Notes under the pieces: model-generated
Databases searched by the model: none
What the model was told of the DNA's origin: nothing
What the model saw: the letters and a program-made list of their open reading frames with translations, nothing else
Assembly (NCBI GenBank): GCA_964618055.1
Contig: CAZTWR010000001.1
Span: 1 to 26,047, forward strand
Length of the DNA stretch: 26,047 nucleotides
Reading direction: 5' to 3'
Source: an uncultured Pirellulales bacterium
GTDB lineage: Bacteria > Planctomycetota > Phycisphaerae > Sedimentisphaerales > Anaerobacaceae
In this document: positions 9,564 through 26,047 of the stretch, in pieces
Numbering within the stretch: position 1 is the stretch's first letter
How the letters are laid out: each line of letters begins with the position of its first letter
Translations under genes and position numbers: made by a program

Positions 9564-10847
9564 TTAAGACCGGCTTTTACTGCTCTCAACTATGCCTTTT
9601 ACATCCGAGACTGTAGGTATCTCGGGGATGATACTTTTATCTGGAAGACCTTTTATTATCAAAAAAGCAGTGTCCTGTGTGTGTTTGCCGGTGAAGATAC
9701 CTTTGTCAACCAGTTGTTTGGCTTTGACATTTGCCTTGAGGTTGAATCCTTTATTGCCGATGAGAACCATATCCGGCGCATTTTCAAGATATGGGCCGGA
9801 ATAAAGCTGCTCTTTTCTGTATATGTCCCTTATAACCTTTTTGCCGTCTATTTCCAGCGAATGAAAGAGACTCTCGAGTTGAGACAGAGGCTCTTCGGCC
9901 TCAGCCGGCTCGACAGTTCCGCAGGGGAACTTGCCTTTGAGGTTTAGATAAATCCTCGCAGGGTCAAGAACAAATGCTTTTGTACCATAACAGATGTTAT
10001 TCAAGTTAGTATCCTGGTCCTGTTTGAACCGGAGGAATCCATTTTGGATAAGCGGGTAACTGATGTAAACATCTTTCTCCAGCTTTTCAAAGCCGTGGTC
10101 TGAGTGCATAATCAGTAAATCATCATCTGTGCTTCTGTCGATGATTTCACCAACTGCTTGGTCAATTTTTCTGAAATGTTCGAGGAATAAATTGTGGTAC
10201 TTGTGGTTTTTATCCTCGACGGCATCCCATAAAAAGTGCATCAGTCTGTCGGTGCCGGTGAATACGAGCATGAAGGTTTGCCAGTCCTGGGTTTGCCAAA
10301 GATAACGGTATGCTTTAATCCTTGCCTCGAGGGTCTTATCCAAATCTGCTAAAAACAGCTCCATCGAACTATGCGCCTTCTGTGAATTGACATCAAGGCG
10401 ATAATCCAGGTTTTTTAGCTGCGGTATCAGGGACTTTGGATAAACACTTTTTTCAAAATCTATGGAGACAAAGCCCGAGATGAGGACGCCATTGGTTTCG
10501 CGGACAGGATAGGTAGAGGGGACGTTAATTATAACGGACTTTCCTTGCCACTGGTCCCAGAACGGTGGCGCTTTCAAATCGTTGAAGTTTGGGAATCTCA
10601 TCTTATAAGAATCAGGGAACAAATCCGTAAAGCCGAAGATTCCGTGCTGGCCGGGGTTTTTGCCGGTAATCAGTGAAGACCACGCTACGGAAGAGACCTC
10701 CGGGATAGAGGAGTGCATTTTTTTGAATATGCTCTGTGAAATTAACTGGTGGGTGTTGAGCATGACGCCGGTTTCGGCGAAGTTTTTAAGCATGCCGAAA
10801 GGCACGCCATCAAGGCCTATTATTACAGTTTTTGCGTTTTGAGTAAT
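9564..10847 (-). CDS. Alkaline-phosphatase superfamily protein (type I phosphodiesterase / nucleotide pyrophosphatase family), probable ATT start
   Basis: KTVIIGLDGVP (upstream of the track start at 10805), PEVSSVAWSSLITGKNPGQHGIFGF, TDRLMH, HSDHGF, FTGKH. The only start-like codons in frame upstream of IIGLDG are ATT/CTG. Confidence 0.8.
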   Translation of the reverse strand: MTQNAKTVIIGLDGVPFGMLKNFAETGVMLNTHQLISQSIFKKMHSSIPEVSSVAWSSLITGKNPGQHGIFGFTDLFPDSYKMRFPNFNDLKAPPFWDQWQGKSVIINVPSTYPVRETNGVLISGFVSIDFEKSVYPKSLIPQLKNLDYRLDVNSQKAHSSMELFLADLDKTLEARIKAYRYLWQTQDWQTFMLVFTGTDRLMHFLWDAVEDKNHKYHNLFLEHFRKIDQAVGEIIDRSTDDDLLIMHSDHGFEKLEKDVYISYPLIQNGFLRFKQDQDTNLNNICYGTKAFVLDPARIYLNLKGKFPCGTVEPAEAEEPLSQLESLFHSLEIDGKKVIRDIYRKEQLYSGPYLENAPDMVLIGNKGFNLKANVKAKQLVDKGIFTGKHTQDTAFLIIKGLPDKSIIPEIPTVSDVKGIVESSKSRS

Positions 10848-10851
10848 AATC

Positions 10852-12081
10852 TCAGTCCACCACAGTGATTATTCCGCCGGCACATATATTTTCATCCTGG
10901 ACAAGGACAAAACGCCCCAGCTCTTGAACGTCGTTGAAGTCTTTGATGACCACAGGCTTTTTGGTTTTGATAACGACTTCTGCCACTTCAAGATTTTTCA
11001 GTACTTTAGCATTCTGCTCGATAACTTCAAGGGTCGAGGAATTAATCCTTTTGTTAATGCTCTCTATTTTGCAGCTTGTCTGCTGGGTGGCACATCTTAT
11101 GTTCAATTTTTGGTCTTTGACAAAGTCCCTCTTGGTCATCCAGAATATATTCGCAGTAATTTTGTCGGTTAAGATAGGTTCTTTACCCGGCAAACATACT
11201 ATATTACCGCGCTCGAGAAAAACTGAATCGGTAGTTGTAATGCCGACGCATTCGCTAGCAACCGCTTTATCAGTTTTTTCGAGGAATTTCTCTATAGCAC
11301 CAATCCTTGTAACTTGGCCGGTTGGCAGAATCTTTACTTCGAGACCTTTCTCGATAACACCTGACTCAACTCTGCCAACGTTAATCCGCTTGTCTGCAAT
11401 CTTGTACACATCCTGGACAGGGAAAATCAAGGGTTTGTCTTCAGCAGGCAGCCTATTCTGCAAAATATCCATACTCTCCAGAAACGTCGGGCCGGTGTAC
11501 CAGTCCATATTTTCGGATTTTTTTGCAATGTTGTCACCTTTGATTGCGGAGATTGGGATGTAAAAAATGGGTTCGATATTTATAGATTTGAGCCATTCGG
11601 CTACGTCTTTTTTGACAGTGTTGAAATGCTCCTGAGCGAAATCCACCAGGTCCATTTTATTTAAAACGACTATAACCTGATGTAACCCCAACAGCGACAG
11701 CATATACGAATGTCGTTTGGTCTGCTCCCTGACGCCCTCGGCAACATCGACAATTACAACAGCTGTCTCTGCCTGGGAGGCACCGGTAATCATATTCTTG
11801 ACAAATTCCACATGGCCAGGAGCGTCAATTATTACATAACGCCTTTTGTCGGTTTTGAAGAAAACCTGTGTTGTATCAATGGTAATACCTTGCTTGCGTT
11901 CTTCTTCCAAATGGTCCAGCAGGTAGGCGAACTCGGTCTCTCTGCCAGCCTCTGCTGAAGCCTTTTTCACTTCCTCAATTTTGTCCGGGGCAAGCGAGTC
12001 AGTATCATAAAGCAGTCTTCCAATCAAGGTTGATTTCCCATGGTCAACGTGACCTACAATAACAAAACTCAGAACGTCCAT
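10852..12081 (-). CDS. cysN: Sulfate adenylyltransferase subunit 1 (GTPase), without a fused APS kinase domain
   Basis: GHVDHGKSTLIGRL, EERKQGITID, DAPGH, NMITGAS, NKMD, ISAIKGDN, GRFVL; two genes downstream of cysD. Confidence 0.93.
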   Translation of the reverse strand: MDVLSFVIVGHVDHGKSTLIGRLLYDTDSLAPDKIEEVKKASAEAGRETEFAYLLDHLEEERKQGITIDTTQVFFKTDKRRYVIIDAPGHVEFVKNMITGASQAETAVVIVDVAEGVREQTKRHSYMLSLLGLHQVIVVLNKMDLVDFAQEHFNTVKKDVAEWLKSINIEPIFYIPISAIKGDNIAKKSENMDWYTGPTFLESMDILQNRLPAEDKPLIFPVQDVYKIADKRINVGRVESGVIEKGLEVKILPTGQVTRIGAIEKFLEKTDKAVASECVGITTTDSVFLERGNIVCLPGKEPILTDKITANIFWMTKRDFVKDQKLNIRCATQQTSCKIESINKRINSSTLEVIEQNAKVLKNLEVAEVVIKTKKPVVIKDFNDVQELGRFVLVQDENICAGGIITVVD

Positions 12082-12082
12082 C

Positions 12083-12400
12083 TTAATCCTCGCTGAGATA
12101 CCCCAACTCTTTTAGTTTCTTCTTTATTTCCTCCATATCCTTTTCTTCCAAGGGCTTGCTTACAGGTAAAGAAGACAGCGGATGTTTTTTCTGGCCGAAT
12201 TTTATAAAAGACCAGAATCTTTCATGCATATAATAACAGAATATTTTCGCTACCGCTTCAACAGCGCCTACGCCGAGTGAAAGAACAATTTTGCGAGTAA
12301 AGACAAAGACTATCGTAGTGGTAACAATAGCAGCAAGTGACCGATAACTTACCGCCTTTATTATCGAGCGCAGGTGTGCCTCTTTGTTATAGTCAATCAT
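12083..12400 (-). CDS. DUF2061-like small membrane protein with a soluble C-terminal LxxLGY helix
   Basis: EAHLRSIIKAVSYR...YYMHERFW; tail KDMEEIKKKLKELGYLSED; lies 1 nt from each neighbour. Confidence 0.8.
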   Translation of the reverse strand: MIDYNKEAHLRSIIKAVSYRSLAAIVTTTIVFVFTRKIVLSLGVGAVEAVAKIFCYYMHERFWSFIKFGQKKHPLSSLPVSKPLEEKDMEEIKKKLKELGYLSED

Positions 12401-12401
12401 C

Positions 12402-13214
12402 CTACATATACCCCAGCGACCGCAATTTCTGCATCATATAGTCGTCTTCCTTGTCCTGTGCTCGTCCACTTCTCTCGGAGACTTTAGAGGTTTTCAACTC
12501 CTCGACAATCTTGTCTATGGTGTCAGCATCTGAATCGACCGGATTACAGCAGGTTTCACAGCCGATGCTTCTGTATCGTTTTCCATTTTTGGCAAAGTAG
12601 AGCTCGACGACGGGGATGTTTTCTCTTTTGACATATTCCCAGACGTCGATTTCGCGCCAGCCGAGTAATGGATGGACCCGAAGGTGCTCTTCCTCAGCGG
12701 CCTTGGTCTTATACTGGTCCCAGAGTTCCGGCGGCTGGTTCTTATAATCCCATTCAAAATCTTCGTCTCTTGGACTGAAGACCCTTTCTTTAGCGCGAAT
12801 ACCGTGCTCGTCCCTTCTGATTCCAAGATACAGCGCCTTAAAACCGTGTTTGGCGATAGCCTTTCTCAGTGCCACAGTCTTTAGTTCATTGCAGCACTGG
12901 AACTTTCCCTTATCTGGCCCGATGCCCTTACTAAGTGCTTCTTCGTTTTTGGCGACGATAAGATTTAAGCCCCACTCTTTGGTGTATTTTTCTCTGAAGT
13001 TGTAAATTTCCTTAAATTTGTAGGTAGTGTCGAGGTGAACAATCGGAAAGGGTATCTTACCAAAAAAGGCTTTTCTGATGAGCCAAAGCAGGGTCGTGGA
13101 GTCTTTGCCGATTGACCAGAGCATAGCCACATCCCTGAATTCGCTATAGGCTTCCCTGATGATGAAAATACTCTGATTTTCCAACTTATCCAGTTGACTG
13201 AGGCCGGAATTCAT
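12402..13214 (-). CDS. cysD: Sulfate adenylyltransferase subunit 2 retaining a CC...CxxC motif
   Basis: WSIGKDS PP-loop, HLDT, GIRRDE, RAKERVFS, QPPELW, RVHPLL, ERSGRAQD; C107-C108 and C219-x2-C222-C223. Confidence 0.93.
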   Translation of the reverse strand: MNSGLSQLDKLENQSIFIIREAYSEFRDVAMLWSIGKDSTTLLWLIRKAFFGKIPFPIVHLDTTYKFKEIYNFREKYTKEWGLNLIVAKNEEALSKGIGPDKGKFQCCNELKTVALRKAIAKHGFKALYLGIRRDEHGIRAKERVFSPRDEDFEWDYKNQPPELWDQYKTKAAEEEHLRVHPLLGWREIDVWEYVKRENIPVVELYFAKNGKRYRSIGCETCCNPVDSDADTIDKIVEELKTSKVSERSGRAQDKEDDYMMQKLRSLGYM

Positions 13215-13495: not shown

Positions 13496-15022
13496 ATGCA
13501 CAATGCTAAATGCACTTGTTGGAACTGCCCGGCCATCGATTTGGCAGGGAAGGTTGATTTCCGTGCCTGTGGCCAATCTGTAAAACAGTTCGATAAAACC
13601 GCAGATTTGACGGGTGAAACCCATGTTATGGCTGAGTGCAAACGCAGGCCCGAACTCGGCCTTTACGACCCAATGGGTATCAGCTTCGAGGAGTGCCCCC
13701 AATGGCAAGAAACGCCATACGGTTACATACTAAAAGATATGAGGGTGATGATTCTCGGCATCGACGGCTATCTCGGCTGGACACTTGCTCTCTGGCTGGG
13801 CAGTCTGGGCTGTAAGGTCAGCGGGGTAGATAACTACAATCGCCGAAACTGGGTGAAAGAAAGAGGCGCTCATACCATCGTGCCTATCGCGAGAATGAAT
13901 GAAAGACTTCGAGCAGCAAAAGAAATCCTCGGTATCGACATCAATTTCCGGCAGATAGACATCTACACGGAGCGCGAGCGCCTCAAGGAATTTATTGACG
14001 AAGTAAAACCCGAATCAATCGTTCACTATGCGGAAAACCCGTCTCCAGCTTTCAGCATGATTGATGTCGAGCATGCCATCGAAGTGCAAAAAAACAACGT
14101 CCTCGGAACCCTTGCATTGCTGTTTACAATGCGGGACACCGTCCCGGAATCGTCCCTGCTGAAGCTCGGAACGATGGGCGAATATGGAACGCCTTTAACC
14201 GGAAGGCCTCTCTTCGAGGGTATCTTCCCCGCCGAGGCAATACTTCAATGGGACGGCCGCGAATGGAGTCTCGGCGGCGAACTGACACCAAGAGACCCGG
14301 TGAGTTTCTACCACGTCAGCAAAGTCCAGGACACGTTCAACGTATACGAAGCCGGCAAATACTGGTGGCTGAGGTCCTATGACATTATGCAGGGTGTAAT
14401 CTTTGGCGTCCATACCGAGCAGGTGGCGGCAGAGGCTCGGCTTCGCACACGGCTCGATATCGACGAGTGGTTTGGAACAATAATAAACCGTTTCGTTGCC
14501 CAGGCGGTCATCGGCATTCCTTTAACGCTGTACGGACTCGGTAAACAGATAAGAGGTTTTATTGCGCTGCGAGATGCTATGGAATGCATGACAAGACTAA
14601 TCTGTTCACCGCCTGAACCAGGCCAGTATGCTGTTGTCAACCAAGTTTCGGGGATTTACAGTGCAAGACAGTTGGCTTACACGGTTGCAAAGGTCGGCAG
14701 AGAGCATTTTAAACTGCCTGTTCAAATCCAGCGAGTCGAAAACCCAAGGGTCGAAGCCGACGAACATCTATTCGAAGCGCTGTATGAAAAACTTCCGAGG
14801 GAATATGGCTTTGAACCAAAGGTCAGCGTGGAAGAAGAAATCTTCAGGATGTTTGAACTCTTTTTGACTGACGAGGTCAGAAGAAGGATTGAAGAAAGAA
14901 AGCACGTAATAATACCCAAGACCTGGTGGTCGGGCGTCAAAAAGGAAGTGGAAAGATTGGAACTGCTGGACCTTAAGGGAGAGATAGAAGAGGATGAGCG
15001 AGTGTTTAAGATTCACCGATAA
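13496..15022 (+). CDS. sqdB: UDP-sulfoquinovose synthase (SqdB/SQD1/Agl3 family) with an extra 81-aa Cys-rich N-terminal domain
   Basis: Core from M82: MRVMILGIDGYLGW, VDN, HYAENPSPAFSM, LKLGTMGEYGTP, FYHVSKVQD (YxxxK), DIMQGVIFG, NRFVAQAVIGIPLTLYG, NPRVE. Strong SD (AAGGAG) precedes ATG 13496. Confidence 0.9.
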   Translation: MHNAKCTCWNCPAIDLAGKVDFRACGQSVKQFDKTADLTGETHVMAECKRRPELGLYDPMGISFEECPQWQETPYGYILKDMRVMILGIDGYLGWTLALWLGSLGCKVSGVDNYNRRNWVKERGAHTIVPIARMNERLRAAKEILGIDINFRQIDIYTERERLKEFIDEVKPESIVHYAENPSPAFSMIDVEHAIEVQKNNVLGTLALLFTMRDTVPESSLLKLGTMGEYGTPLTGRPLFEGIFPAEAILQWDGREWSLGGELTPRDPVSFYHVSKVQDTFNVYEAGKYWWLRSYDIMQGVIFGVHTEQVAAEARLRTRLDIDEWFGTIINRFVAQAVIGIPLTLYGLGKQIRGFIALRDAMECMTRLICSPPEPGQYAVVNQVSGIYSARQLAYTVAKVGREHFKLPVQIQRVENPRVEADEHLFEALYEKLPREYGFEPKVSVEEEIFRMFELFLTDEVRRRIEERKHVIIPKTWWSGVKKEVERLELLDLKGEIEEDERVFKIHR

Positions 15023-15377
15023 GAACTTCAAGGAGGAAGTTCTCGGCAGCGAATTACCGGTTTTTGTGGACTTCTGGGGCTCATGGTGTCCGCCATGCAA
15101 AATGGTTGAACCGGTAATGGATAAGTTGGCAAAGCACTTCGATGGAAAAATAAAAGTTGGCAAGCTCAATGTCGACCAGAATCCTCAGACCCGCTCAATG
15201 TTTAATATTGGTGGTGCGCCAACCTTTATCCTATTCAAAGACAGCCAGGTTCTTGAGAGGATTGTAGGAGCTCGTTCAAAGAAACAGCTCCTGGAGTTGA
15301 TAGAAACCGCTCTCAAGTCCCAACCTTCGACGGCATCGAAAAGCTCAAAAACGCAAGAGTCAGAGCGGTCAGCGTAA
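14994..15377 (+). CDS. trxA: Thioredoxin
   Basis: VDFWGSWCPPCKM, KVGKLNVDQNP, APTFILFK; overlaps the end of sqdB by 29 nt. Confidence 0.9.
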   Translation: MSECLRFTDKNFKEEVLGSELPVFVDFWGSWCPPCKMVEPVMDKLAKHFDGKIKVGKLNVDQNPQTRSMFNIGGAPTFILFKDSQVLERIVGARSKKQLLELIETALKSQPSTASKSSKTQESERSA

Positions 15378-15400: not shown

Positions 15401-16396
15401 ATGGGAAAAACCCCCGACAAACAGCAAATCTTTATCACCGGCGGAGCAGGCTTTATTGGTGCCAACCTGACCAGGTATCTGCTGGAAAGGTCTGAATCTA
15501 ATATCACCGTATATGACAATCTCTCAACAGGTTCAAAGGCCAATCTCGACAAAGCCATAGGCGATTCTGGACAGAACGGCAGGGTCAAATTTATTCAAGG
15601 TGATATCCTTGACTTTGACGCAATGTTCCGAGTCGTTGCTGGTCATAATGCCGTAGTTCACCTTGCTGCACATACCCGCGTGCGCGAATCCATTGGGAAC
15701 CCCCGGGAAAATCTGATGATAAATTCGGTGGGCACCTTCAACGTCCTTGAAGCTGCGCGAAAGCAGGGTGTTGATAAATTTGTCTTCGCCTCATCAAATG
15801 CTGCTGTTGGCGAACAAAAACCCCCAATAAATGAGTCTATGATTGCCAACCCCCTTTCACCTTATGGTGCAGTAAAACTTTATGGCGAAGCACTTTGTTC
15901 GGCCTATTACCGTTGCTACGGGTTCAAAACTGTCTCCCTTCGTTTTGCAAATGCATACGGGCTTTACTCAGGGCACAAAACCTCTGTTATCGCCAAATTC
16001 CTAAGAAGGGTCAGAGAAGGTAAGAGTTTGGAAATATACGGCGATGGCAACCAAACCCGCGACTTCATCCACGCTCAGGACATCTGCCAGGCGATAGACC
16101 TTATCCTTAGGGACCCCGCAAGGCGGGAACCTCTTACACACCACAACGGCGGACCCAATTTCTGGGGTGAGGTTTTCCAAATCGCCACCGGAGAGGAAAC
16201 AGCAATAATCAATCTTGCCAAAATGCTCATCGATTTCACGAATTCTCCGGAACAGCTGATAACATTCACTTCCCCAATAAAAGGCGAGATAAGAAAAAAT
16301 TTCTCAGACATAACAAAAGCGAAAGAGATTCTTGGGTTTTCTCCACAAATGAAATTGGGAACCCAGTTGAAAGCATTGTGCACTGAGGTACAGTAA
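15401..16396 (+). CDS. NAD-dependent epimerase/dehydratase (extended SDR, GalE-like)
   Basis: ITGGAGFIG, YDNLSTG, HLAA, ASSNAAVG, YGAVK, RFANAYG, GDGNQTRDFIH. Confidence 0.9.
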   Translation: MGKTPDKQQIFITGGAGFIGANLTRYLLERSESNITVYDNLSTGSKANLDKAIGDSGQNGRVKFIQGDILDFDAMFRVVAGHNAVVHLAAHTRVRESIGNPRENLMINSVGTFNVLEAARKQGVDKFVFASSNAAVGEQKPPINESMIANPLSPYGAVKLYGEALCSAYYRCYGFKTVSLRFANAYGLYSGHKTSVIAKFLRRVREGKSLEIYGDGNQTRDFIHAQDICQAIDLILRDPARREPLTHHNGGPNFWGEVFQIATGEETAIINLAKMLIDFTNSPEQLITFTSPIKGEIRKNFSDITKAKEILGFSPQMKLGTQLKALCTEVQ

Positions 16397-16399
16397 AAA

Positions 16400-17443
16400 A
16401 TGTCAAATTTAAGAATTATCGGCTTAATCATAGGGATATTAGGATTAGTCCTGACTTTCAGAATTTATCGCGGCCCGCGGTGGAGAAGATTGAATTTTGT
16501 GCTTTCCGGATTTTTTAGTCTCTCCCTCATTGCCATCTCTGTTAACCCTAACTTAGTCAATAGAGCCACCGGAATGCTCGCTTTGCAGCAGGAAGAACGC
16601 GGACGGATACTTACACTCTTAATCTTATCGAGTATGGGCCTATGGTTTCTGCTAATACATCATAGGACCAAGTTAGACAAATATGGCCGCCAGTTTGACC
16701 TACTTGTTAGACACCTTGGCCGCGAAAAGGCCGAACCATTAATAGGTGCCGACACCTCTAAGGCCGAAATTATGGTCGTTATGCCTGCTTACAACGAGGC
16801 TGAAAACCTCAAAAGTCTCTTAAAGCAAATGCCATCAGAAATCCAGGACAAAAAAGTGGGCGTCATCGTCGTAGACGATGGCAGCACCGACGAGACCGTA
16901 AAAATCGTCGAACAGGCAGGATATTTAGCTGTTAGAAACAGCATCAGACGTGGCGGTGGAGCTGCCTTAAGACTCGGCTACGACCTTGCAAAAGACATCG
17001 GCGCTAAGATAGCCGTCACTATGGATGCCGACGGCCAGCATGACCCCAAGCAAATCCATCGCCTTATCGAGCCTATCCTGCAGGATAAATCCGATTTCGT
17101 AATCGGCTCCCGCATACTTGGTAGATGGGAAAAAGATAATAAACTTCGTTCCATCGGATTGTATTTCTTCAATCTCATAATAAACACCCTGACCAAAACT
17201 AAAATCACTGATTGCTCCAGCGGTTTTAGAGCTTTTAAAGTCGATGTTCTGGACTCTGTCATTCTGAAAGAAGACCAATTTCATACCAGTGAACTTATAA
17301 TCGACGCCGCTAAAAAAAGAGTAAGAATTGCTGAAGTGCCCATAACTATTAGGAGCCGAAAACACGGCCGAAGCAAAAAAGGCAAAGACTGGAAATATGG
17401 ACTAAGCTTTGCAAAAACTATTCTCAAAACCTGGTGGCGATAA
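16400..17443 (+). CDS. DUF2304-like membrane domain fused to a GT2 polyprenol-phosphate glycosyltransferase
   Basis: Residues about 1-110 form three hydrophobic helices ending FDLLVRHLG; then VMPAYNEA, VVDDGSTD, TMDADGQH, DCSSGFRAF. Confidence 0.85.
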   Translation: MSNLRIIGLIIGILGLVLTFRIYRGPRWRRLNFVLSGFFSLSLIAISVNPNLVNRATGMLALQQEERGRILTLLILSSMGLWFLLIHHRTKLDKYGRQFDLLVRHLGREKAEPLIGADTSKAEIMVVMPAYNEAENLKSLLKQMPSEIQDKKVGVIVVDDGSTDETVKIVEQAGYLAVRNSIRRGGGAALRLGYDLAKDIGAKIAVTMDADGQHDPKQIHRLIEPILQDKSDFVIGSRILGRWEKDNKLRSIGLYFFNLIINTLTKTKITDCSSGFRAFKVDVLDSVILKEDQFHTSELIIDAAKKRVRIAEVPITIRSRKHGRSKKGKDWKYGLSFAKTILKTWWR

Positions 17444-17856: not shown

Positions 17857-17912
17857 GAAGGCTTTTGTGAACGAACTATAAATTGTATCGTAATTTGATT
17901 GGAGATGAGAAT

Positions 17913-19019
17913 ATGAAACGCAATTGTTTGATTTTAACTGTCCTTATTGTTGCTTCTGCTTGCCTTTTGCAGATTGGCTGTGAAGAGCAGACTGTGGCGA
18001 CGGAGGGGGCTAAACCTGAGTTAACAGCAGCCGAGCCGGCGGCTGGTTCGGTAAAAGCTGAAACTGCCCCTGAAGCTGATGAACAGGGCCCGAAAATTGC
18101 GTTTGAAAAAGTGGTTCACGATTTCGGCGACATCGGGCCGGGAACAAAAAATGTCTGTGAGTTTAAATTTACAAACACAGGGGATAGTTTGTTGAAAATA
18201 ACAAAGGTTAGCAAGACCTGTGGCTGTACGCCATATACCCTGGCGAAAAAGGAATATGAAGCGGGCGAGAGCGGGACCTTGAAAGTGAAGTACAATGCGA
18301 GTAAACGGCCCGGCTCGATAAGGAAACATCTGTTTGTATCCAGCAACGATGAGGCGAAGTCCAGGGTTGAACTGGTCGTAAAGGCCAAGATTGTAGCGAA
18401 AATTGATTACCAGCCGAAGAGACTTGACCTTTCGCTTAGCAAGGAAAACGCCGGTTGTTCGGCGATTACGATTAGAAGTGTTGATGGCAAGCCATTTTCG
18501 ATAAAGCGGTTCAAGACAACTGGGCAGTCCAAATCGACAGAAAAGGCCATAACTGCTGATTATGATTCTTCAGTGGAAGCAACGGAATTTGTTCTTCAAC
18601 CGAAAGTCAATATAGAAAAACTGCGAAAAGGATTGAATGGGCGTATCGAAATTACTCTGACTCATCCAGAAAGTGGTGTAGTCGCTATCCCATTTAAAGT
18701 GCTGCCGAGATTTAAAATTACTCCACCGACCCTTATTATTTACAAGGCTGAACCGGAAAAGCCGGTAACAAAGGAGGTCTGGATACTCAGCAACTATGAT
18801 GAGGAGTTCGAGGTTGAGTCGACATCAACGCGAAAAGGTATTATAAAGGTTTTGAGCCAGGAAAAGATTGATAATCGTTGTAAGTTTGAGCTGGAGATAA
18901 CGCCTCCGGCTACTAAGGGAGGTCGAAGAAGCTTTTTCACAGATGTGTTTTTTGTGAATATAAAAGGCGGTGAGAAACTAAAGGTTACCTGCCGAGTATT
19001 CTATTTAAAAAAATCGTAG
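17913..19019 (+). CDS. DUF1573 (Ig-like) domain lipoprotein
   Basis: ATG 17913 with GGAG at 17901-17904; signal peptide with lipobox-like LQIGC; HDFG...FKFTNTGDSLLKITKVSKTCGCT...PG-like GESGTLKVKY; further beta-rich repeats. Confidence 0.8.
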   Translation: MKRNCLILTVLIVASACLLQIGCEEQTVATEGAKPELTAAEPAAGSVKAETAPEADEQGPKIAFEKVVHDFGDIGPGTKNVCEFKFTNTGDSLLKITKVSKTCGCTPYTLAKKEYEAGESGTLKVKYNASKRPGSIRKHLFVSSNDEAKSRVELVVKAKIVAKIDYQPKRLDLSLSKENAGCSAITIRSVDGKPFSIKRFKTTGQSKSTEKAITADYDSSVEATEFVLQPKVNIEKLRKGLNGRIEITLTHPESGVVAIPFKVLPRFKITPPTLIIYKAEPEKPVTKEVWILSNYDEEFEVESTSTRKGIIKVLSQEKIDNRCKFELEITPPATKGGRRSFFTDVFFVNIKGGEKLKVTCRVFYLKKS

Positions 19020-19090
19020 AAATCATCCCCGTACTAATATTGAGCTTGGGCTCACACATATATTGGTAGGGGATAAAGCTGACTTGGCAT

Positions 19091-20515
19091 ATGATGCGAT
19101 TAGTAAGTTGCGTTTGTGTGTTAGTGATGGGGGCTTTGTCTATATTGGTTATGTCGGCAAAGTCGGCCCATAAGACCACCCCTTCCTTTTGCAATAAGTC
19201 GCAAGATGGGAACCCGGCTGATGTTCTTACGGTTTTTCTAACCGGCAATGAACTTGGTGCATTGAAGCCCTGTGGCTGTTCCGGCGGACAACTTGGGGGA
19301 CTTGACAGACGTTCGGAGGTCTTCAATAGCGTGCCTGCGTCCAAACGGTTGATTGTGGATACGGGCTCGTTTGTAGAAGGTGATGGTGAGCAAGATTTAA
19401 TCAAGTTCAAAATATTAATTCAGGCGTTTAGTCTGCTCGATTACGATTTGGTCAACCTGAACGAAAAAGACATTGAGATAGCTGAAAATCTTGGACTGCT
19501 GGAGAGTATCGGCTCTGTTTTTAATGTTATAAGTTTTCAAAGCGGTGCTGAAGCGGATGTGCCCAGCCCCTTAGAGGGGCGGGACGTGCCAACAAAATTC
19601 ACAAAACAGTTTTCGCTAAAAGAAGGAATTGTAGCTGCGACAGTTGCGGCCTTTGATGCGGAATCCGCGGGGGACTCCAAAGCCGATAAATCGGCTTTGG
19701 AAACCTCGCTAATAGAGCAAATCGGTGGACTTTTTACCCCCAGGACCGATGTGCAAACGGTTAACATCCTCATCCTAAACCATTGTGATACTTCCGTTAT
19801 TGGTTCTGTTGCGGAGATGGGAATTGTGGATTGCCTGGTTTGTCCGGCTGAATCTGATGAGGCGGAGGTAATTGGCGACCCAAATAAAAAACCTTTGGTT
19901 GTCTCTGTAGGTAGATACGGGAAATATGTGGGCAAATTGGAAATAAGCTATACCGACATTTGGAGCAAGAGATTTCATTTTTCTGCTGTGCCGGTTACAG
20001 AAGAGCTGCCACAGGAAGAGTCTCTTGTTGAATTGTACAAGGTCTACCAGCAGCTTGTTAAAGAGGAGGACCTTTTGGAGAAACAGCTGCGTTTTTCTTT
20101 ACCGAATGGTTTGAAATATACCGGCTCGGAATCCTGTAAGCTCTGTCACGATTACGAATATGAAAAGTGGAGCGCCAAAGTCCATGCGCACGCTTATGCG
20201 ACGCTTGAAAAGGTCGGCTCCCAGTTCGACCCTGAGTGTATTGTATGCCATGTGGTTGGCTTTGAGTATGAAAGCGGTTTTATTTCCGAAGGGAAAACCG
20301 ACTATTTGAAAAACGTTGGCTGTGAGAGCTGCCATGGTCCAGGCTCAGAACATATCCGAACTTTGGGGAAAGCCGGGACTACTGGGCCGATGTTAGATTG
20401 CGGAGATTGCCACACACCCGAGCAAAGTGCCGACTACGCGGGGAATGAGCAACTTTATTTGGAAAAAATAGTTCATTGGAGGGAACCAAATGTTGTCGGT
20501 GATGTCAAAGAATAA
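19091..20515 (+). CDS. Exported tetraheme c-type cytochrome (c554-like) with an N-terminal degenerate 5'-nucleotidase/metallophosphoesterase-like domain
   Basis: N-terminal hydrophobic signal; TGNELGALKPCGCSGGQLGGL, VDTGSF; four CxxCH motifs: CKLCH (20135), CIVCH (20237), CESCH (20321), CGDCH (20399). Confidence 0.85.
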   Translation: MMRLVSCVCVLVMGALSILVMSAKSAHKTTPSFCNKSQDGNPADVLTVFLTGNELGALKPCGCSGGQLGGLDRRSEVFNSVPASKRLIVDTGSFVEGDGEQDLIKFKILIQAFSLLDYDLVNLNEKDIEIAENLGLLESIGSVFNVISFQSGAEADVPSPLEGRDVPTKFTKQFSLKEGIVAATVAAFDAESAGDSKADKSALETSLIEQIGGLFTPRTDVQTVNILILNHCDTSVIGSVAEMGIVDCLVCPAESDEAEVIGDPNKKPLVVSVGRYGKYVGKLEISYTDIWSKRFHFSAVPVTEELPQEESLVELYKVYQQLVKEEDLLEKQLRFSLPNGLKYTGSESCKLCHDYEYEKWSAKVHAHAYATLEKVGSQFDPECIVCHVVGFEYESGFISEGKTDYLKNVGCESCHGPGSEHIRTLGKAGTTGPMLDCGDCHTPEQSADYAGNEQLYLEKIVHWREPNVVGDVKE

Positions 20516-20534
20516 GGAGACCTGGAAGACTAAT

Positions 20535-21482
20535 ATGATAAAGACATTGCGGATAACAAGTATTATAGCGGTGATTTTAGCGGTTGTTTTTTTTGTTTTT
20601 CCTGCGGTTTTTGGTGTTCGTGGCGATGAACAGATCGAGCAATTTTTGAATTCTGCTGGCGTGATAGAGAAATTCAACGAGGCGCGGGGTGATAAAGTCA
20701 AGGATAGCCGCCAGGAAATCTCACCACTTGTGAAGCAGGCAGAGGCTTTTGCGTTGTATTTGAATCCACCCCCTAAGCCAAAGGCAAAATCTTCGGTGTC
20801 TCGTAGTAAACCCAGCCCCAGGGGGTCTGTTTCACCTAAATTTAAGCTTGTTGGTACCAGTCGTTATGCGTTACACCCGGAGTTGTCGCTGGCCTTGATT
20901 GACGAGCCTGGCAAGGGCTTGCGCTGGATAAGACAATTCAGCAAGGTGGGCCATTTAATTATTGAGCAGGTAAAAGACGGTCTTGTGGTTGTTCAAGACG
21001 GCAAAAGGACTTTCGAACTTGTTGCGGAAAGGCCGGAAAAAAGAAGTCTTCTTAAGAAGGACTCATCATCCGGTGCCAGCATTAGCAGCAGAAAGTCTCG
21101 GGGGATAGGCTCTGAAGTTCAGATGAACGCCGAAGAAAAAGCAGCGTTAGCGAAAGAGGCGGAAGCCGAGGGGAAAAAGGCCTTAGCTGAGCTGAATACC
21201 TTGCTACTTGAACTTGGAATGGAAGATTTTCAGATGGATGTTGAACCTGACGAAGCTAATTTGGCCCCTAAGGATGAGGAAATTGTGGCAGTGAGGAACC
21301 GTGAGACTATGCGTATAAGTGCCAGAGAAGCAGGGAGACTAGGCCGTTTGGGCCGAAGATTGAAGAACGTTCGGCGGCGGGCTCCTAATCGGGTCGAAGA
21401 CGATGGAACTGAAGGTGATGCAAACTTGATTGAACCAAGCTTGAATGTCATGGACTTGAATGATGTGAATAGTCCGGGATAA
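20535..21482 (+). CDS. Type II secretion GspC-like inner-membrane protein
   Basis: N-terminal TM, Pro/Ser/Lys linker, HR-like domain FKLVGT...LALIDEPGKG...IEQVKDGLVVV, charged tail; upstream of gspD. Start uncertain (20490, 20502 or 20535). Confidence 0.55.
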   Translation: MIKTLRITSIIAVILAVVFFVFPAVFGVRGDEQIEQFLNSAGVIEKFNEARGDKVKDSRQEISPLVKQAEAFALYLNPPPKPKAKSSVSRSKPSPRGSVSPKFKLVGTSRYALHPELSLALIDEPGKGLRWIRQFSKVGHLIIEQVKDGLVVVQDGKRTFELVAERPEKRSLLKKDSSSGASISSRKSRGIGSEVQMNAEEKAALAKEAEAEGKKALAELNTLLLELGMEDFQMDVEPDEANLAPKDEEIVAVRNRETMRISAREAGRLGRLGRRLKNVRRRAPNRVEDDGTEGDANLIEPSLNVMDLNDVNSPG

Positions 21483-22017
21483 GGATAGTCCCTGCTCGCC
21501 GCACGCAAAAAGGCCGATATTAGCTGTTAGCTCTCCGTAAGTCCGCTTGGGGACGCCTAAGAGCGGAGTCCCTATGACTGCCACAGGTAGCGGAGAAGAC
21601 AGTAGCCATTTAATTCCAGCCTCCCTAAAGACGTTACACCTGATTAAGGGGTACTGAGTCTTGCTTATTTGTTTTTATTGTGCTTTTATTATTTTTCTGG
21701 TTTTTGCCAATAGATAGCAGGTCCTATTTTGCGGGTTTCCAAACGCAAGAAGAGGTGGTTGAGCCCCCTGCAAAATAAGTCGCAAAATGGGAGTTCTCAG
21801 CAAATTCTTAGCTGAAAATAAGGAACTTTTTGACGTTTTCTGTGTCTGAATTAGTATGGTGGGTATTCGAGGTGGTCGAAGTTGGAGACTTAAGCGAGTA
21901 TTTACGTAAGGGCTTATGAAAAAAGGGCTTATTTTAGTAGCTTTCAGCACGATGTCCGATAAGTACTGAGACTTGTAGATATGTAGATTTTTAGATTGGT
22001 GAACTACGGAGTAAATT

Positions 22018-25000
22018 ATGGTGGTAGAGCGGCAATTTCAAAGCCGTGGTAAGGCAAAAGTTTTTATTTGGGCAGTAATTTTTGTTCTGAGCGGCAGTTG
22101 TCTTTTTGCTGTGGAGCGAGGGGCTGCTTCTGGGGCTGCGCGGTACAGGGTTTTTCCCTTAAAACACATATCAGCTGAGCAAGGCAAAAAATATCTTGCT
22201 GAGGCCGGGGTCGGCACGGTTTCGCAGCTTCCTGGTCTCGATACGCTTTTGGTAACGGCTCAACCTCAGGGGTTGATTAAAGCAAGCGCTATTTTGGAGC
22301 TTGTTGATGCTGAGGAGCTTTTTTGTATAAAAGCGGTTTTTCCTGCCTCAGAGGTCGAAAATCTTCCCCCTAATGAGCAAATAGCAACTGAGGTTGGTGA
22401 TATATCGATAGGGACCTTCTCTAATCCGCCAACCGGCGCTGCAAAGGCTAAAGCAATTATAGACGTTCACAATGATGCTGTAATAGCTGTTGCTCCAGCT
22501 GGGCAGCTTGAAAGGATTATTTCTGCTATTGAACAGTTGCGGAGCACTGAAGCGCAAGCTCTGCGAGACTCCGAGCCGGACAAATTAGTTGAGAGGGATG
22601 AGGCAAGTGAAGGGGAAGCGGAAATAGAAACAATCACAGAGGCTGAGATTAAAAGAGCAGAGGGGGAGGCAGAGGCAGAGCTTAAAAAGTTAGCCGCTTC
22701 TTTTGAACCTGGCGGTCAGGCCGATGAAGGAGACGACGAATCGGATAGGCTTTTCAATAAACTTCTCAGATCGATTGCCGATGCTGAGAAGGGTCCCATT
22801 TTGCAAAAAGAAGGCGAGATGGAGCCCCAAAGGAAGACGGCTGAGGCTCAACAACTGAGCCAACCAAATACTGTTGCAGCTGTACCGGATGCAAAGGGGC
22901 CGAATGAGCCTTCCGTTGGTTTGAAGCAAACAGAAGAATCAGCTCAGGCTACTAAAGAACCGCAGTCCGCAGTCCCAGGGACTCCTTACGGAGGACACCT
23001 TACGGTGGAACCGAATTTAGCTGACGAGGAATCGGAACCGAATCTTGAGCCGGTTTCGAAAATCCATTCATACGAGCCGCCACCAATTGCCGGTGGGAAT
23101 GCAATGCTTGAGCTGGATTTGCCCGAGAAGCTTAATATCATAGATTTGTTGGATTTGGTAGGTAAGTATTTACAACTGGACTATATGTATGATGAAACCG
23201 AGGTGAAAGGCGAAGTTGCACTGAGGCTTCAAGGACCTATCAAGATAAAGGATTTATATCCTCTGCTTGAATCTGTGCTGAAGTTCAAAGGCTTTGTGAT
23301 GACTCGCAGAGGCAATCTTGTAACCATTGTCCCTGCTGATGAAGCTGTGAGTATTGACCCTATTTTACACCCTGAAGCGGGTGAGATTCAGCTTGGGGAT
23401 GTAATTATAACCCGTGTCTTTAGGCTGAAGCATATAGACACAGCTAGTGCACAGAATCTTTTGGCTGGTATGGAGCTTGGCGCAGACGTCACGCCGATTC
23501 CCGAAACAGGAACGCTTATCGTTACTGGATACGCCTACCGTATGGCACGCGTAGAGGAACTTTTGCAAATGGTCGACAAGCCGGGTGAGCCGAGGCAATT
23601 CAGGTTCAGGCAGTTAAAATACACGATGGCCACAACGCTTGCTCCGAAAATTAAGACGCTTGCCGAGCAGTTAGGAACTGTATCAGTTACTATTGCAGCA
23701 CCTTCACCAGCGCCACCAGCTAGGCCTACCAGGAGGCGACCTATGCCTGGGGCACCCACACCATCTGCGCCGGCTAAACCGGCTGTGTACCTGGATGCCG
23801 ACGAAAGAACGAACCGCATCCTGATGATAGGGCTTGAGGAGCAATTGAGTATTGTTGATGCTTTGATAGATGCTCTTGATGTTGAACAGCAGGACCTTCG
23901 GTCTCTGCGATTATATGATATCCAGCATGTTGGAGCCGAGGAAGTGGTGGAAAAGCTGGGAGAGCTTGGCATAATTGGCGGTGGTGGTCGGATAACCAGG
24001 AGGACTTCTGCTGCGGCCAAGTCCGCCCCTGGGTCTGCAGTGGAGGCTCTTGTGGAAGAACCCCAAGTGGTGGTAATTGAGTCAACGAATTCGCTTTTGG
24101 TAAATGCCACGGCGGAGCAGCACATCCAGATAGCTACAATTATCAGCTATGTGGACAGTGTGACCCTCGAGCAGGCAATACCCTATGTAACTTATCCACT
24201 TGAAAACCAGGACCCAGCGAATTTGGCGGAAGTTCTGCAGAAACTTATTCATGAGACTGTCAAAGACAAAGAAGGCAAGATTGAAAGAACAATAAGGAGA
24301 ATAGAAGAAGACATCGTCATCGTTCCTGATGAAAGCACTTTTTCAATAATTGTTTATGCCAGCAAGAAAAATCAGGAGTGGATAGGGAATTTAATAAAGC
24401 AATTGGATAAGAGAAGACCGCAGGTCCTGATTGATGTCTCACTTGTCGAAATAACCAAAGAGGAAGAGTTTGAGTATGATTTGAGCCTTTTGGCTAATGC
24501 AACAGGAGACCTTGTAAGGGACAATATTGCCATAATGGGGGGGGGCTCACTGCCAGTGGATGCTGGTGGACGCAGCATAATCGAAGCCGGATTTGATCTG
24601 CTTGATAGTGAAGGGACTCCTACCAAGAGAGTCAAGGGTTTCTATAACGAGGGTCGAATCCAAGCACTTTTCGACGCTATAGATAAGAAAGGTTACGGCC
24701 GAATCCTCGCCCGGCCCAAAGTCCTGGTCAATGATAATGAAGAAGGGCTAATAAAAACTACCGAGAAAACCCATGTCTCTGAGAGTACTACAAGCTACAC
24801 AAGCGAAGGTATTCCAATTACCACGTCAAAGTTTGTTCCTTATGAAGCCAAGATTGAGTTAGCCATTACTCCAAATATCAGTGAAGGCGATTTGCTGCGT
24901 CTTGAAATTAATATGCTTCGTGAAGACTTTCAGAGAAAAGAAGAAGGCCCTCCTGATTATACAACAAGCAATGTAGCCACAATTGTTACTGTCCCTGATG

Positions 25001-25323
25001 GCAGTACTATCATTCTCGGCGGCCTGACAAAACTAAAGCAAGCAAAAGCTGGAAGCAAAGTGCCCTTGTTGGGTGATGTCCCGCTCGTCGGAGGATTATT
25101 CAGGACCGTTGCCAACAGTGATAAGGCAAGTAAGCTCTATATCTTTGTTAAAGCCAACATCCTGCGACCTGAGGAGACTGTTGGTCTTGCGCAACTTCAG
25201 CGAATCTCTGAGAGAAACAGGGCCGCTTTTGAGGAGGCTGAACGCCGTTTCCAGGAATACGAGAGTATTCCAGGGGCAGAGCCGGAGCCGATGGAACCGC
25301 TGCGTGTCCTTGAGGCAGAATAA
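22018..25323 (+). CDS. gspD: Type II secretion secretin GspD, enlarged (1101 aa)
   Basis: N0 (NIIDLLDLVGKYLQLDY), repeated N domains (TRVFRLKHID, FRQLKY, LYDIQH, TYPLENQDP), RRPQVLIDV, ITPNIS, IILGGL, KVPLLGDVPLVGGLFR, LYIFVKANIL. Confidence 0.93.
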   Translation: MVVERQFQSRGKAKVFIWAVIFVLSGSCLFAVERGAASGAARYRVFPLKHISAEQGKKYLAEAGVGTVSQLPGLDTLLVTAQPQGLIKASAILELVDAEELFCIKAVFPASEVENLPPNEQIATEVGDISIGTFSNPPTGAAKAKAIIDVHNDAVIAVAPAGQLERIISAIEQLRSTEAQALRDSEPDKLVERDEASEGEAEIETITEAEIKRAEGEAEAELKKLAASFEPGGQADEGDDESDRLFNKLLRSIADAEKGPILQKEGEMEPQRKTAEAQQLSQPNTVAAVPDAKGPNEPSVGLKQTEESAQATKEPQSAVPGTPYGGHLTVEPNLADEESEPNLEPVSKIHSYEPPPIAGGNAMLELDLPEKLNIIDLLDLVGKYLQLDYMYDETEVKGEVALRLQGPIKIKDLYPLLESVLKFKGFVMTRRGNLVTIVPADEAVSIDPILHPEAGEIQLGDVIITRVFRLKHIDTASAQNLLAGMELGADVTPIPETGTLIVTGYAYRMARVEELLQMVDKPGEPRQFRFRQLKYTMATTLAPKIKTLAEQLGTVSVTIAAPSPAPPARPTRRRPMPGAPTPSAPAKPAVYLDADERTNRILMIGLEEQLSIVDALIDALDVEQQDLRSLRLYDIQHVGAEEVVEKLGELGIIGGGGRITRRTSAAAKSAPGSAVEALVEEPQVVVIESTNSLLVNATAEQHIQIATIISYVDSVTLEQAIPYVTYPLENQDPANLAEVLQKLIHETVKDKEGKIERTIRRIEEDIVIVPDESTFSIIVYASKKNQEWIGNLIKQLDKRRPQVLIDVSLVEITKEEEFEYDLSLLANATGDLVRDNIAIMGGGSLPVDAGGRSIIEAGFDLLDSEGTPTKRVKGFYNEGRIQALFDAIDKKGYGRILARPKVLVNDNEEGLIKTTEKTHVSESTTSYTSEGIPITTSKFVPYEAKIELAITPNISEGDLLRLEINMLREDFQRKEEGPPDYTTSNVATIVTVPDGSTIILGGLTKLKQAKAGSKVPLLGDVPLVGGLFRTVANSDKASKLYIFVKANILRPEETVGLAQLQRISERNRAAFEEAERRFQEYESIPGAEPEPMEPLRVLEAE

Positions 25324-25334
25324 GAAAATAGGGC

Positions 25335-25404
25335 AGGGGCAACACTGTGTGGTTGCCCTAATTTCCGCGTTCCAAAAGGGCAGGCACATAAGCCTGCCCC
25401 TACA
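25335..25404. repeat. Inverted pair of GTAG-family REP-like palindromes (REPIN-like)
   Basis: Stem GGGCAAC/GTTGCCC (25337-25343/25352-25358), 18-nt spacer, stem GGGCAGGC/GCCTGCCC (25378-25385/25392-25399) followed by CTAC (GTAG on the minus strand). Confidence 0.7.
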
Positions 25405-25409
25405 ATGTT

Positions 25410-26047
25410 ATGAGAGATTTATTGATACAAACTGCTAAGCGGACGGGTCTGGTTGACGCTGAGCAATTGGCCAAGTTTCTGGAAGAAAACAGCGAAGAAA
25501 AATCCCGACTTGATGAGCTTTTGCTTGCCTGTCCGTACTTTACCGAGGAAGCGGTCTTGAAGCTGTTTGCCGCTGCGCTGGGGTGGGAATTTTTAGAGGA
25601 TATATCTGCCAAGGCTGTGCCAGCTGAATTCATAGAATCTGTTCCTGCGACCTATGCTCAGCAGCATTATCTTATCGGCGTAAGAACTAAGGCCGATGAC
25701 GGAGAACTTACCGTGGTTTTATCCAAGCCTTTAGACTCAAACGTTCTGGATAATGTTTCGAAGATGAGCGGTTTGTCCGTCAGGCCGGCAATATCCACTC
25801 GTGCTGCTATTACTGCTGTAATAGATGCTGCCTACGAGCAGAGGACGACAGTCATTGAGGAAGTGGCGGAAGAACTCGATTCGCAAAATCTCGACCGGCT
25901 CATTGACGAAGTGGCCGCTTCTGATGACCTTCTTGATGTTGTTAATCGTCCGCCGGTTATCAGATTAGTTAATGATATCCTTTTTCGTGCATTGCAATTG
26001 CGGGCCAGCGATATTCATGTCCACCCTTACGAGACAAAGATTCAGAT
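25410..26047 (+). CDS. gspE: Type II secretion / type IV pilus assembly ATPase GspE/PilB, 3' end beyond the window edge
   Basis: Translated by hand and absent from the ORF track: MRDLLIQTAKRTGLVDAEQL...RLDELLL...PPVIRLVNDILFRALQLRASDIHVHPYE; follows gspD. Confidence 0.9.
   Translation, partial: MRDLLIQTAKRTGLVDAEQLAKFLEENSEEKSRLDELLLACPYFTEEAVLKLFAAALGWEFLEDISAKAVPAEFIESVPATYAQQHYLIGVRTKADDGELTVVLSKPLDSNVLDNVSKMSGLSVRPAISTRAAITAVIDAAYEQRTTVIEEVAEELDSQNLDRLIDEVAASDDLLDVVNRPPVIRLVNDILFRALQLRASDIHVHPYETKIQ

Follow-up and report, generated by a model that had tools for sequence, protein, structure and literature searches.

The 26,047-nucleotide stretch analysed here (hereafter the window; contig CAZTWR010000001.1 of an uncultured Pirellulales bacterium) encodes a CysD, the catalytic small subunit of the ATP sulfurylase CysDN, whose reaction is coupled to GTP; this CysD carries the set of four cysteines known from assimilatory adenosine 5'-phosphosulfate (APS) reductase, CysH. 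Our preferred reading, to which as a whole we assign a probability of about 0.65, is that this protein is a true APS-making CysD with an inherited [4Fe-4S] cluster at its sulfate site, and that an enzyme of the alkaline phosphatase fold consumes its product. The four-cysteine CysD is a family-wide and apparently undescribed variant that represents a large, unstudied and mostly anaerobic branch. To our knowledge, none of the textbook CysDN enzymes (E. coli, Pseudomonas, Mycobacterium) has a metal cluster.

The cysteine set

The cysD open reading frame translates into 270 amino acids with exactly five cysteines, all of them located in two motif sites: the tandem pair C107/C108 in QCCNELK, and C219, C222 and C223 in SIGCETCC (table 1). 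These five residues and their coordinates, the motifs QPPELW at residue 160 and ERSGRAQD at residue 247, and the lack of a C-terminal ECG(L/I)H are all as described in an earlier reading of the window (the original prediction); the protein ends in ...QKLRSLGYM and has no Cys past residue 223.

In APS reductase, CC-x(~80)-CxxC binds a [4Fe-4S] cluster. HMMER/phmmer alignment with the solved APS reductases of Pseudomonas aeruginosa (2goy) and Mycobacterium tuberculosis (7lhr) places both sites of the window CysD on the corresponding motifs of these enzymes, with C219 and C222 as the CxxC pair and C223 as a fifth cysteine where CxxCT has Thr. Lys112, located four residues past the tandem pair, aligns with the Lys which in APS reductase forms a bridge from the cluster to the sulfate of the substrate. 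When 165 sequences (148 CysD and 17 CysH) were aligned jointly with MAFFT, 15 of the 17 CysH had CCCCT in the five columns that correspond to those of CysD; the remaining two, which resemble 3'-phosphoadenosine 5'-phosphosulfate (PAPS) reductases, show YNDST and YNDTS. The tandem pair is a mark of the APS reductase cluster, which has been proposed to serve substrate binding (PMC1175818).

Classical CysDs differ at both sites, having Lys-His (Ser-Arg in actinobacteria) in place of the cysteine pair and at most one Cys of the CxxC. The CysD of Pseudomonas syringae (1zun), with Lys-His in the first site and only the first Cys kept in the second (LGCYPLT), bears out the earlier statement that proteobacterial CysD lacks the ligand set.

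Since all five cysteines fall in two sites, the set is kept in 120 of 120 close homologues and the columns are common to 15 of the 17 CysH, the occurrence of the ligand set in the window CysD is not due to chance. Two CysD homologues carry inteins at the cysteine sites, P0126 between the two cysteines of the tandem pair, exactly at the second, and P0200 at the first Cys of CxxC; although any Cys can host an intein, these positions fit functionally central sites. In the homologues P0125 and P0189 the intein is inserted at the SPRD motif, at its Ser, and P0151 is another intein-bearing homologue.

The most likely arrangement is that C107, C108, C219 and C222 ligate a [4Fe-4S] cluster beside the sulfate/APS pocket, in the manner of assimilatory APS reductase, where Lys112 would sit between the cluster and the substrate. 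The likely task of such a cluster would be to give the site its shape and to polarise it where sulfate binds, with no reduction taking place. C223 could make a contact in the second shell or serve as a spare ligand.

Family membership

The window protein scores 359.7 bits against the CysD subfamily model NF003587 (cut-off 195) and 144.8 bits against PF01507. The models of classical CysD are missed, with 285.1 bits against 413 for the equivalog NF009214 and 275.5 against 396.6 for the subfamily model TIGR02039, and the classical-model match breaks into two stretches that flank an absent insert. Because NF003587 is passed and the two classical models are missed, the protein belongs to the CysD family but lies outside its E. 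coli-type subgroup. Scores against the APS reductase model TIGR02055 (61.8, cut-off 235.3) and against NF002537 (76.7, cut-off 154) lie far below threshold.

Among solved structures the top relative in a phmmer search is P. syringae CysD (1zun_A, E-value 1.5e-67), with 47% identity over the modelled core. The match is in two pieces, since about 30 residues after position 209 are absent from the window CysD; classical CysDs carry an insert of 28-30 residues there. The AlphaFold2 model (predicted local distance difference test score, pLDDT, 88.8) likewise has 1zun_A as its best fold match (TM 0.89, normalised by target), followed by the APS reductases 4bwv and 2goy. With the CysDs of CysDN enzymes (P. 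syringae 1ZUN chain A, E. coli, rhizobial NodP) the window protein has in common NF003587, the PP-loop, the QPPELW, ER.GR and GY-terminal motifs, and the pairing with CysN. The PP-loop (SxGKDS), the motif that serves to cleave ATP between its alpha and beta phosphates, is intact, and its residues S34, G36, K37, D38 and S39 are invariant or nearly so in two alignments (A1, of 17 sequences, and A2). CysN is the neighbour in nearly all related cysD loci, and in the window cysD is translationally coupled to cysN through an overlapping DUF2061 gene. On the basis of the family scores, the 1zun_A match, the fold match and the coupling to cysN, the gene encodes the CysD subunit of CysDN ATP sulfurylase.

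With assimilatory APS reductase (2GOY, 7LHR) the window CysD shares the fold, the CC...CxxC columns, the Lys four residues past the pair and the ER.GR motif, whose counterparts are ER(A/S)GR(W) in APS reductases and ERQGR in classical CysD and which is also present in the CysH of relatives. Unlike APS reductase, it has no ECG(L/I)H cysteine, its PP-loop is intact and it has a GTPase partner; the true CysH of relatives end in ...GGECGIH.... A mis-annotated APS reductase is ruled out by the absent catalytic tail, the scores below cut-off and the pairing with CysN. As a separate observation, the Fe-S APS reductases of relatives (CC...GCxPCT...GGECGIH; loci L095-L100 from genomes G040, G002, G008, G003, G006 and G039) seem to keep an intact PP-loop, SLGKDS, unlike the degenerate one of the P. 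aeruginosa enzyme.

Distribution and evolution of the four-cysteine form

The CC...GCxxCC pattern is kept in all 120 of the closest database clusters (80-90% identity), the few named sources of which are Phycisphaerae, Sedimentisphaerales or Planctomycetes. Among representatives taken one per 50% cluster, short CysDs with CC...CxxC outnumber every other state, and 76 of the 144 diverse CysDs in the tree set that have all four columns filled contain all four cysteines. The statement in the original prediction that similar CysDs occur in anaerobes, and that the motif may not be rare, was thus correct; it is the majority state. Archaeal lineages with the set include Thermoplasmatota, Woesearchaeota and other DPANN, Bathyarchaeia, ANME-1 and Methanosarcinales. 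Bacterial ones include Phycisphaerae, Lachnospiraceae, Clostridium, Thermodesulfobacteriota, Syntrophorhabdus and Smithella, as well as Omnitrophota, Kiritimatiellae, Acidobacteriota and Chloroflexota. Short CysDs without the set, with RS..D.IT or VT..C.IT instead, are found in Acetobacteraceae, Xanthobacter and other Alphaproteobacteria, Chthoniobacterales, Methylacidiphilales and Fimbriimonadaceae.

The CysD/CysH phylogeny with the motif mapped on it, which had been proposed as a check, was built with FastTree (165 rows) and with an IQ-TREE quick search (60 rows), in both cases rooted on CysH and with the five trait columns left out. In both trees the basal CysD branches are CCCCT and the groups without the cysteines are nested within cysteine-bearing CysDs. 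The nested clades are an alphaproteobacterial one (support 100), a verrucomicrobial one (100, FastTree) and the proteobacterial plus actinobacterial clade with the long insert (100); inside the last lies P0257, a long-insert CysD that is still CCCCS. The minimum number of changes on the tree is 11 for the four-cysteine state and seven for the fifth position. The four-cysteine set is probably the ancestral state of CysD, as judged from the alignments and trees, and the stronger argument for this is not the tree itself but the presence of the set in matching columns of both sister families, CysD and CysH. The cluster would then have been inherited from the common ancestor of CysD and CysH, and would have been lost several times in oxygen-living lineages.

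At the fifth position Cys is present in 43 and Thr in 38 of the 165 aligned sequences, the latter including 15 of the 17 CysH; Thr is the state of CysH and of basal CysD. C223 is a Thr-to-Cys change that marks one large derived clade and is not peculiar to the window gene, and the recognition of the fifth cysteine as a clade-level change is new here.

The distribution bears also on what a cluster would do. It could be real and serve as an oxygen or redox sensor, so that sulfate activation is switched off once it is oxidised or lost; such a regulatory role is the better placed of the alternatives to our reading, though still improbable. The cysteine forms occur in lineages known to be anaerobic, the forms without them in the groups listed above, and the 11 state changes on the tree imply several independent losses at least. 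However, an oxygen-labile, purely structural cluster that becomes a liability in air predicts the same pattern, and sequence does not separate the two; moreover, catalysis by APS reductase proceeds without any cycling of its cluster (PMC1175818).

On the preferred reading the site holds an Fe-S cluster, and it counts against that reading that the four cysteines could bind zinc instead. In this alternative, which we regard as unlikely and somewhat less probable than a sensor, the cysteines bind zinc or form disulfides and are purely structural. Four-cysteine sites are able to bind zinc, and heterologous preparations of such proteins often carry it. On the other hand, the homologous residues of APS reductase, among them the unusual pair of neighbouring cysteines, are proven ligands of a [4Fe-4S] cluster, and there is no reason why a zinc site should be lost preferentially in aerobes. 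Further points weigh on the same side as the zinc possibility. Support of the deep nodes is moderate, 62-89 with IQ-TREE and in part below 20 with FastTree. The assignment of four-cysteine lineages to anaerobes and of cysteine-less lineages to aerobes is our assumption, taken from record titles and general knowledge. Among 41 other genomes with a four-cysteine CysD, whose completeness is not known, 29 are without a second PF01507 gene, 29 without APS kinase and 23 without both. A literature search found no description of an Fe-S CysD; a study of ANME archaea that includes a CysD tree does not mention the cysteines (PMC6286981).

If the majority and ancestral CysD carries a [4Fe-4S] cluster, sulfate activation in anaerobes and in many archaea would be an Fe-S-dependent and oxygen-sensitive step. 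The cluster of APS reductase would then predate the split between APS-making and APS-reducing enzymes, which bears on the long debate over the purpose of this non-redox cluster. The question is directly testable in the cultured Sedimentisphaera salicampi, whose CysD (P0107) is 82% identical to that of the window.

Formation and fate of APS

The company kept by four-cysteine CysDs elsewhere helps to distinguish APS formation from APS reduction. In P0124 a four-cysteine CysD is joined to an entire Fe-S CysH that keeps an ECGLH of its own, and P0133 and P0137 are fusions of APS kinase and CysD. A five-cysteine CysD adjoins an APS kinase in one locus (L022, genome G060), and in five genomes (G043, G044, G055, G057 and G078) the five-cysteine CysD coexists with extra PF01507 genes that are CysH-like in length class only. 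These arrangements show the cysteine set in the company of what appears to be ordinary APS formation, and because four-cysteine CysD is fused to CysH or to APS kinase, the set alone is no replacement for APS reductase. The interpretation given in the original prediction is thus supported in part: an Fe-S ATP sulfurylase is likely, as far as sequence comparison can tell. A role of the protein as a reductase is unlikely.

Directly after cysN, where classical CysDN operons have APS kinase, the window encodes an enzyme of the alkaline phosphatase superfamily (PF01663). From the first canonical start its product scores 110.4 bits, which rises to 124.2 bits, with the match running from model position 1, when translation begins at nt 10850. 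The metal-binding strand IIGLDG, a conserved element, is encoded ahead of the first ATG, GTG or TTG. An ATT that comes immediately after the stop of cysN is in the same frame, and the gene probably starts at this ATT. The predicted nucleophile is Ser (PEVSS), and a sequence search against solved structures gave no match.

A PF01663 homologue is located within 6 kb in 21 of 39 four-cysteine cysD loci and in none of 39 loci of the cysteine-less form, whereas APS kinase, usually fused to cysN, stands beside cysD in 32 of the 39 cysteine-less loci and in only one of the 39 four-cysteine loci. This split in gene context between cysteine-bearing and cysteine-less forms is new here. P0215 is a fusion of PF01663 and CysD. 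The only relatives that have been tested are two sulfatase-fold members of the same superfamily in Halobacterium salinarum, VNG1056C and VNG1057C, which are required for N-glycan sulfation (PMC11980604). Given the linkage to four-cysteine CysD, the P0215 fusion and the Halobacterium proteins, the alkaline-phosphatase-fold enzyme is the best candidate for the consumer of APS. The window enzyme belongs to a different branch of the superfamily from the Halobacterium proteins, and in the parts of that study considered here the sulfate donor of the Halobacterium sulfotransferases is not defined (PMC11980604). The module cysD-cysN-PF01663 of the window lies in a glycan locus and is tied also to a sulfoquinovose-synthase-like gene and a thioredoxin. 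In the window organism CysDN would make APS within the glycan locus, and the APS would probably be handed to the enzyme encoded after cysN, not to APS kinase or CysH.

The window genome, which is 73% complete, contains no second PF01507 gene. The assembly (G000) does include a fusion of the ATP sulfurylase Sat and APS kinase in one frame (1-915) of a 1.7-kb contig (C351, L002), which may be mis-binned: both domains are absent from the closed genome of a relative, and the G+C content of the contig is 46.6% against 44.4% in the window. That relative (G017), a single contig of 2.27 Mb from the same family, has the same locus at 75-91% protein identity and no CysH, APS kinase or Sat. A search for AprA gave no match in it, nor in any control genome. 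It does encode a 220-residue sulfite/nitrite-reductase-like protein (L101:5199-5861) adjoining a rubrerythrin gene. The missing step from APS to sulfite is real in this genome, and two other single-contig relatives with this CysD (G037 and G038) also have neither CysH nor APS kinase. Such evidence from closed genomes, pointing to a consumer of APS that is neither CysH nor CysC, is new here. Genome-based pathway calls that treat all CysDs alike would overlook that the four-cysteine form mostly has neither CysH nor APS kinase with it and is linked instead to enzymes of the alkaline phosphatase fold.

Sulfoquinovose-synthase-like gene and thioredoxin

Divergent from cysD, the window encodes a protein similar to UDP-sulfoquinovose synthase (table 1), in which the Thr and the Tyr-His-x-x-Lys of SQD1 are present. 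It has a conserved, Cys-rich N-terminal extension of 81 residues (13496-13738) without a match to any Pfam family. The extension is coding: it is preceded by a ribosome binding site and an ATG, its differences from G017 are mostly in third codon positions and look synonymous, and divergence is heavy upstream of the ATG. Across 116 homologues with a length of some 509 residues (P0272-P0391), conservation of the extension's cysteines C8, C11, C25, C48 and C67 is 98-100%. The thioredoxin gene that follows overlaps the end of the synthase-like gene by 29 nt, and its active site is WCPPC in place of the usual WCGPC.

In 15 metagenomic loci thioredoxin is located immediately downstream of the synthase-like gene, with cysD near or not, and it is absent from the 11 cysD loci of relatives that lack the synthase-like gene. 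The link of CysD with the neighbouring thioredoxin, on which the original prediction had drawn for its assays, is thus not borne out; because thioredoxin travels with the synthase-like gene, the idea of CysD as an APS reductase served by thioredoxin is left without conserved linkage. Thioredoxin as a partner of CysD is ruled out in the same way, as it follows the synthase-like gene. A link to the synthase as a general trait of four-cysteine CysD is ruled out too: just one of the 41 other genomes that encode a four-cysteine CysD has the synthase-like gene, and 39 of 40 relatives lack it.

PF01663 lies directly upstream of the synthase-like gene in at least 12 metagenomic loci, and the string PF01663 - long synthase-like gene - thioredoxin, in some cases followed by a short-chain dehydrogenase/reductase (SDR), recurs in metagenomes (L104-L134). 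In one of these loci (L112) cysD and cysN precede the string in a single operon. In another (L121) a true Fe-S APS reductase lies directly upstream of the synthase-like gene, and neither PF01663 nor thioredoxin is present; this locus hints that PF01663 and thioredoxin may stand in for CysH.

It is against this background that a bifunctional five-cysteine CysD has to be considered, one that makes APS and then attacks its sulfate with C223 in place of the ECG(L/I)H cysteine, thioredoxin releasing sulfite for the sulfoquinovose synthase. The APS-binding residues common with APS reductase (Lys112, ER.GR and the cluster cysteines) are all present, the locus joins cysDN to a synthase-like gene and a thioredoxin, and both the closed relative, with its small sulfite-reductase-like gene and its lack of CysH, APS kinase and Sat, and the APS reductase of L121 are further points in its favour. 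Nevertheless, we consider this the least probable of the alternatives and very unlikely. Thioredoxin follows the synthase-like gene and not cysD, and the fifth cysteine is not tied to sulfite demand, given how rarely the synthase-like gene accompanies four-cysteine CysD. Five-cysteine CysDs coexist with PF01507 genes of CysH length (a matter of length only) and with an adjacent APS kinase. C223 comes directly after a cluster ligand instead of sitting on a mobile tail, and the alkaline-phosphatase-fold enzyme is the better-linked candidate for the missing step.

A broader proposal, for which we see a minor chance, is that sulfate reaches UDP-sulfoquinovose without CysH or APS kinase, sulfite being freed from APS by an undescribed thiol route. 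The nucleophile of such a route could be C223 of CysD, acting in the same pocket, which by itself is very unlikely; alternatively, the sulfo group could be transferred by the co-operonic alkaline-phosphatase-fold enzyme, with the dedicated thioredoxin or the synthase's Cys-rich N-terminal domain as acceptor.

Table 1. Features of the window discussed in the text, with coordinates, strand and supporting evidence.
Feature	Coordinates	Strand	Evidence
cysD (P0001), catalytic small subunit of CysDN ATP sulfurylase, short Fe-S-type form (putative cluster)	12402..13214	-	NF003587, PF01507, 1zun_A
PP-loop S34-I-G-K-D-S39, ATP pyrophosphatase motif	13098..13115	-	aligns on SIGKDS of 1zun
C107 (12894-12896) and C108 (12891-12893), tandem pair in QCCNELK	12891..12896	-	on ECC pair of 2goy and 7lhr
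K112, four residues past the Cys pair	12879..12881	-	aligns with Lys of ECCGIRK in 2goy; invariant in A1
C219 (12558-12560), C222 (12549-12551) and C223 (12546-12548) in SIGCETCC	12546..12560	-	on SIGCEPCT (2goy) and SIGCAPCT (7lhr)
E247-R-S-G-R251	12462..12476	-	alignment to 1zun domain 2
DUF2061 small membrane protein, overlapping cysD stop and cysN start	12083..12400	-	PF09834, 56.8 bits
cysN, GTPase subunit, 409 aa, no APS kinase domain	10852..12081	-	TIGR02034, 355.8 bits (cut-off 336.1)
Alkaline-phosphatase-superfamily enzyme directly after cysN, candidate APS consumer	9564..10850	-	PF01663
UDP-sulfoquinovose-synthase-like SDR, divergent from cysD	13496..15022	+	NF041015, 393.6 bits (below cut-off of 575)
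Thioredoxin	14994..15377	+	TIGR01068, 105.6 bits (cut-off 96.8)
SDR epimerase/dehydratase	15401-16396	+	Pfam and NCBIfam matches
Polyprenyl-phosphate-type GT2 glycosyltransferase	16400-17443	+	Pfam and NCBIfam matches

Other genes of the window

The C-terminal tail of the DUF2061 protein encoded between cysD and cysN (...KKLKELGYLSED) resembles that of CysD; a literature search on DUF2061 yielded no helpful information. When the window was compared with the loci L083, L086, L090, L091, L011, L095, L098 and L099, DUF2061 tails were seen to copy the C-terminus of the neighbouring enzyme, with ...KL(K/R)xLGY(I/L) beside CysD and ...EYQI beside the APS reductases of relatives, which end in ...LLDYQI. 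A DUF2061 gene stands beside the APS reductase in five of the six loci L095-L100, the exception being L100, where the gene lies at the edge of the stretch.

Downstream of the glycan genes, the forward strand of the window (17883-26045) encodes a DUF1573 protein, a multihaem cytochrome c554-like protein (19091-20515), a secretin of 1101 residues (22018-25323) and an MshEN-domain protein.

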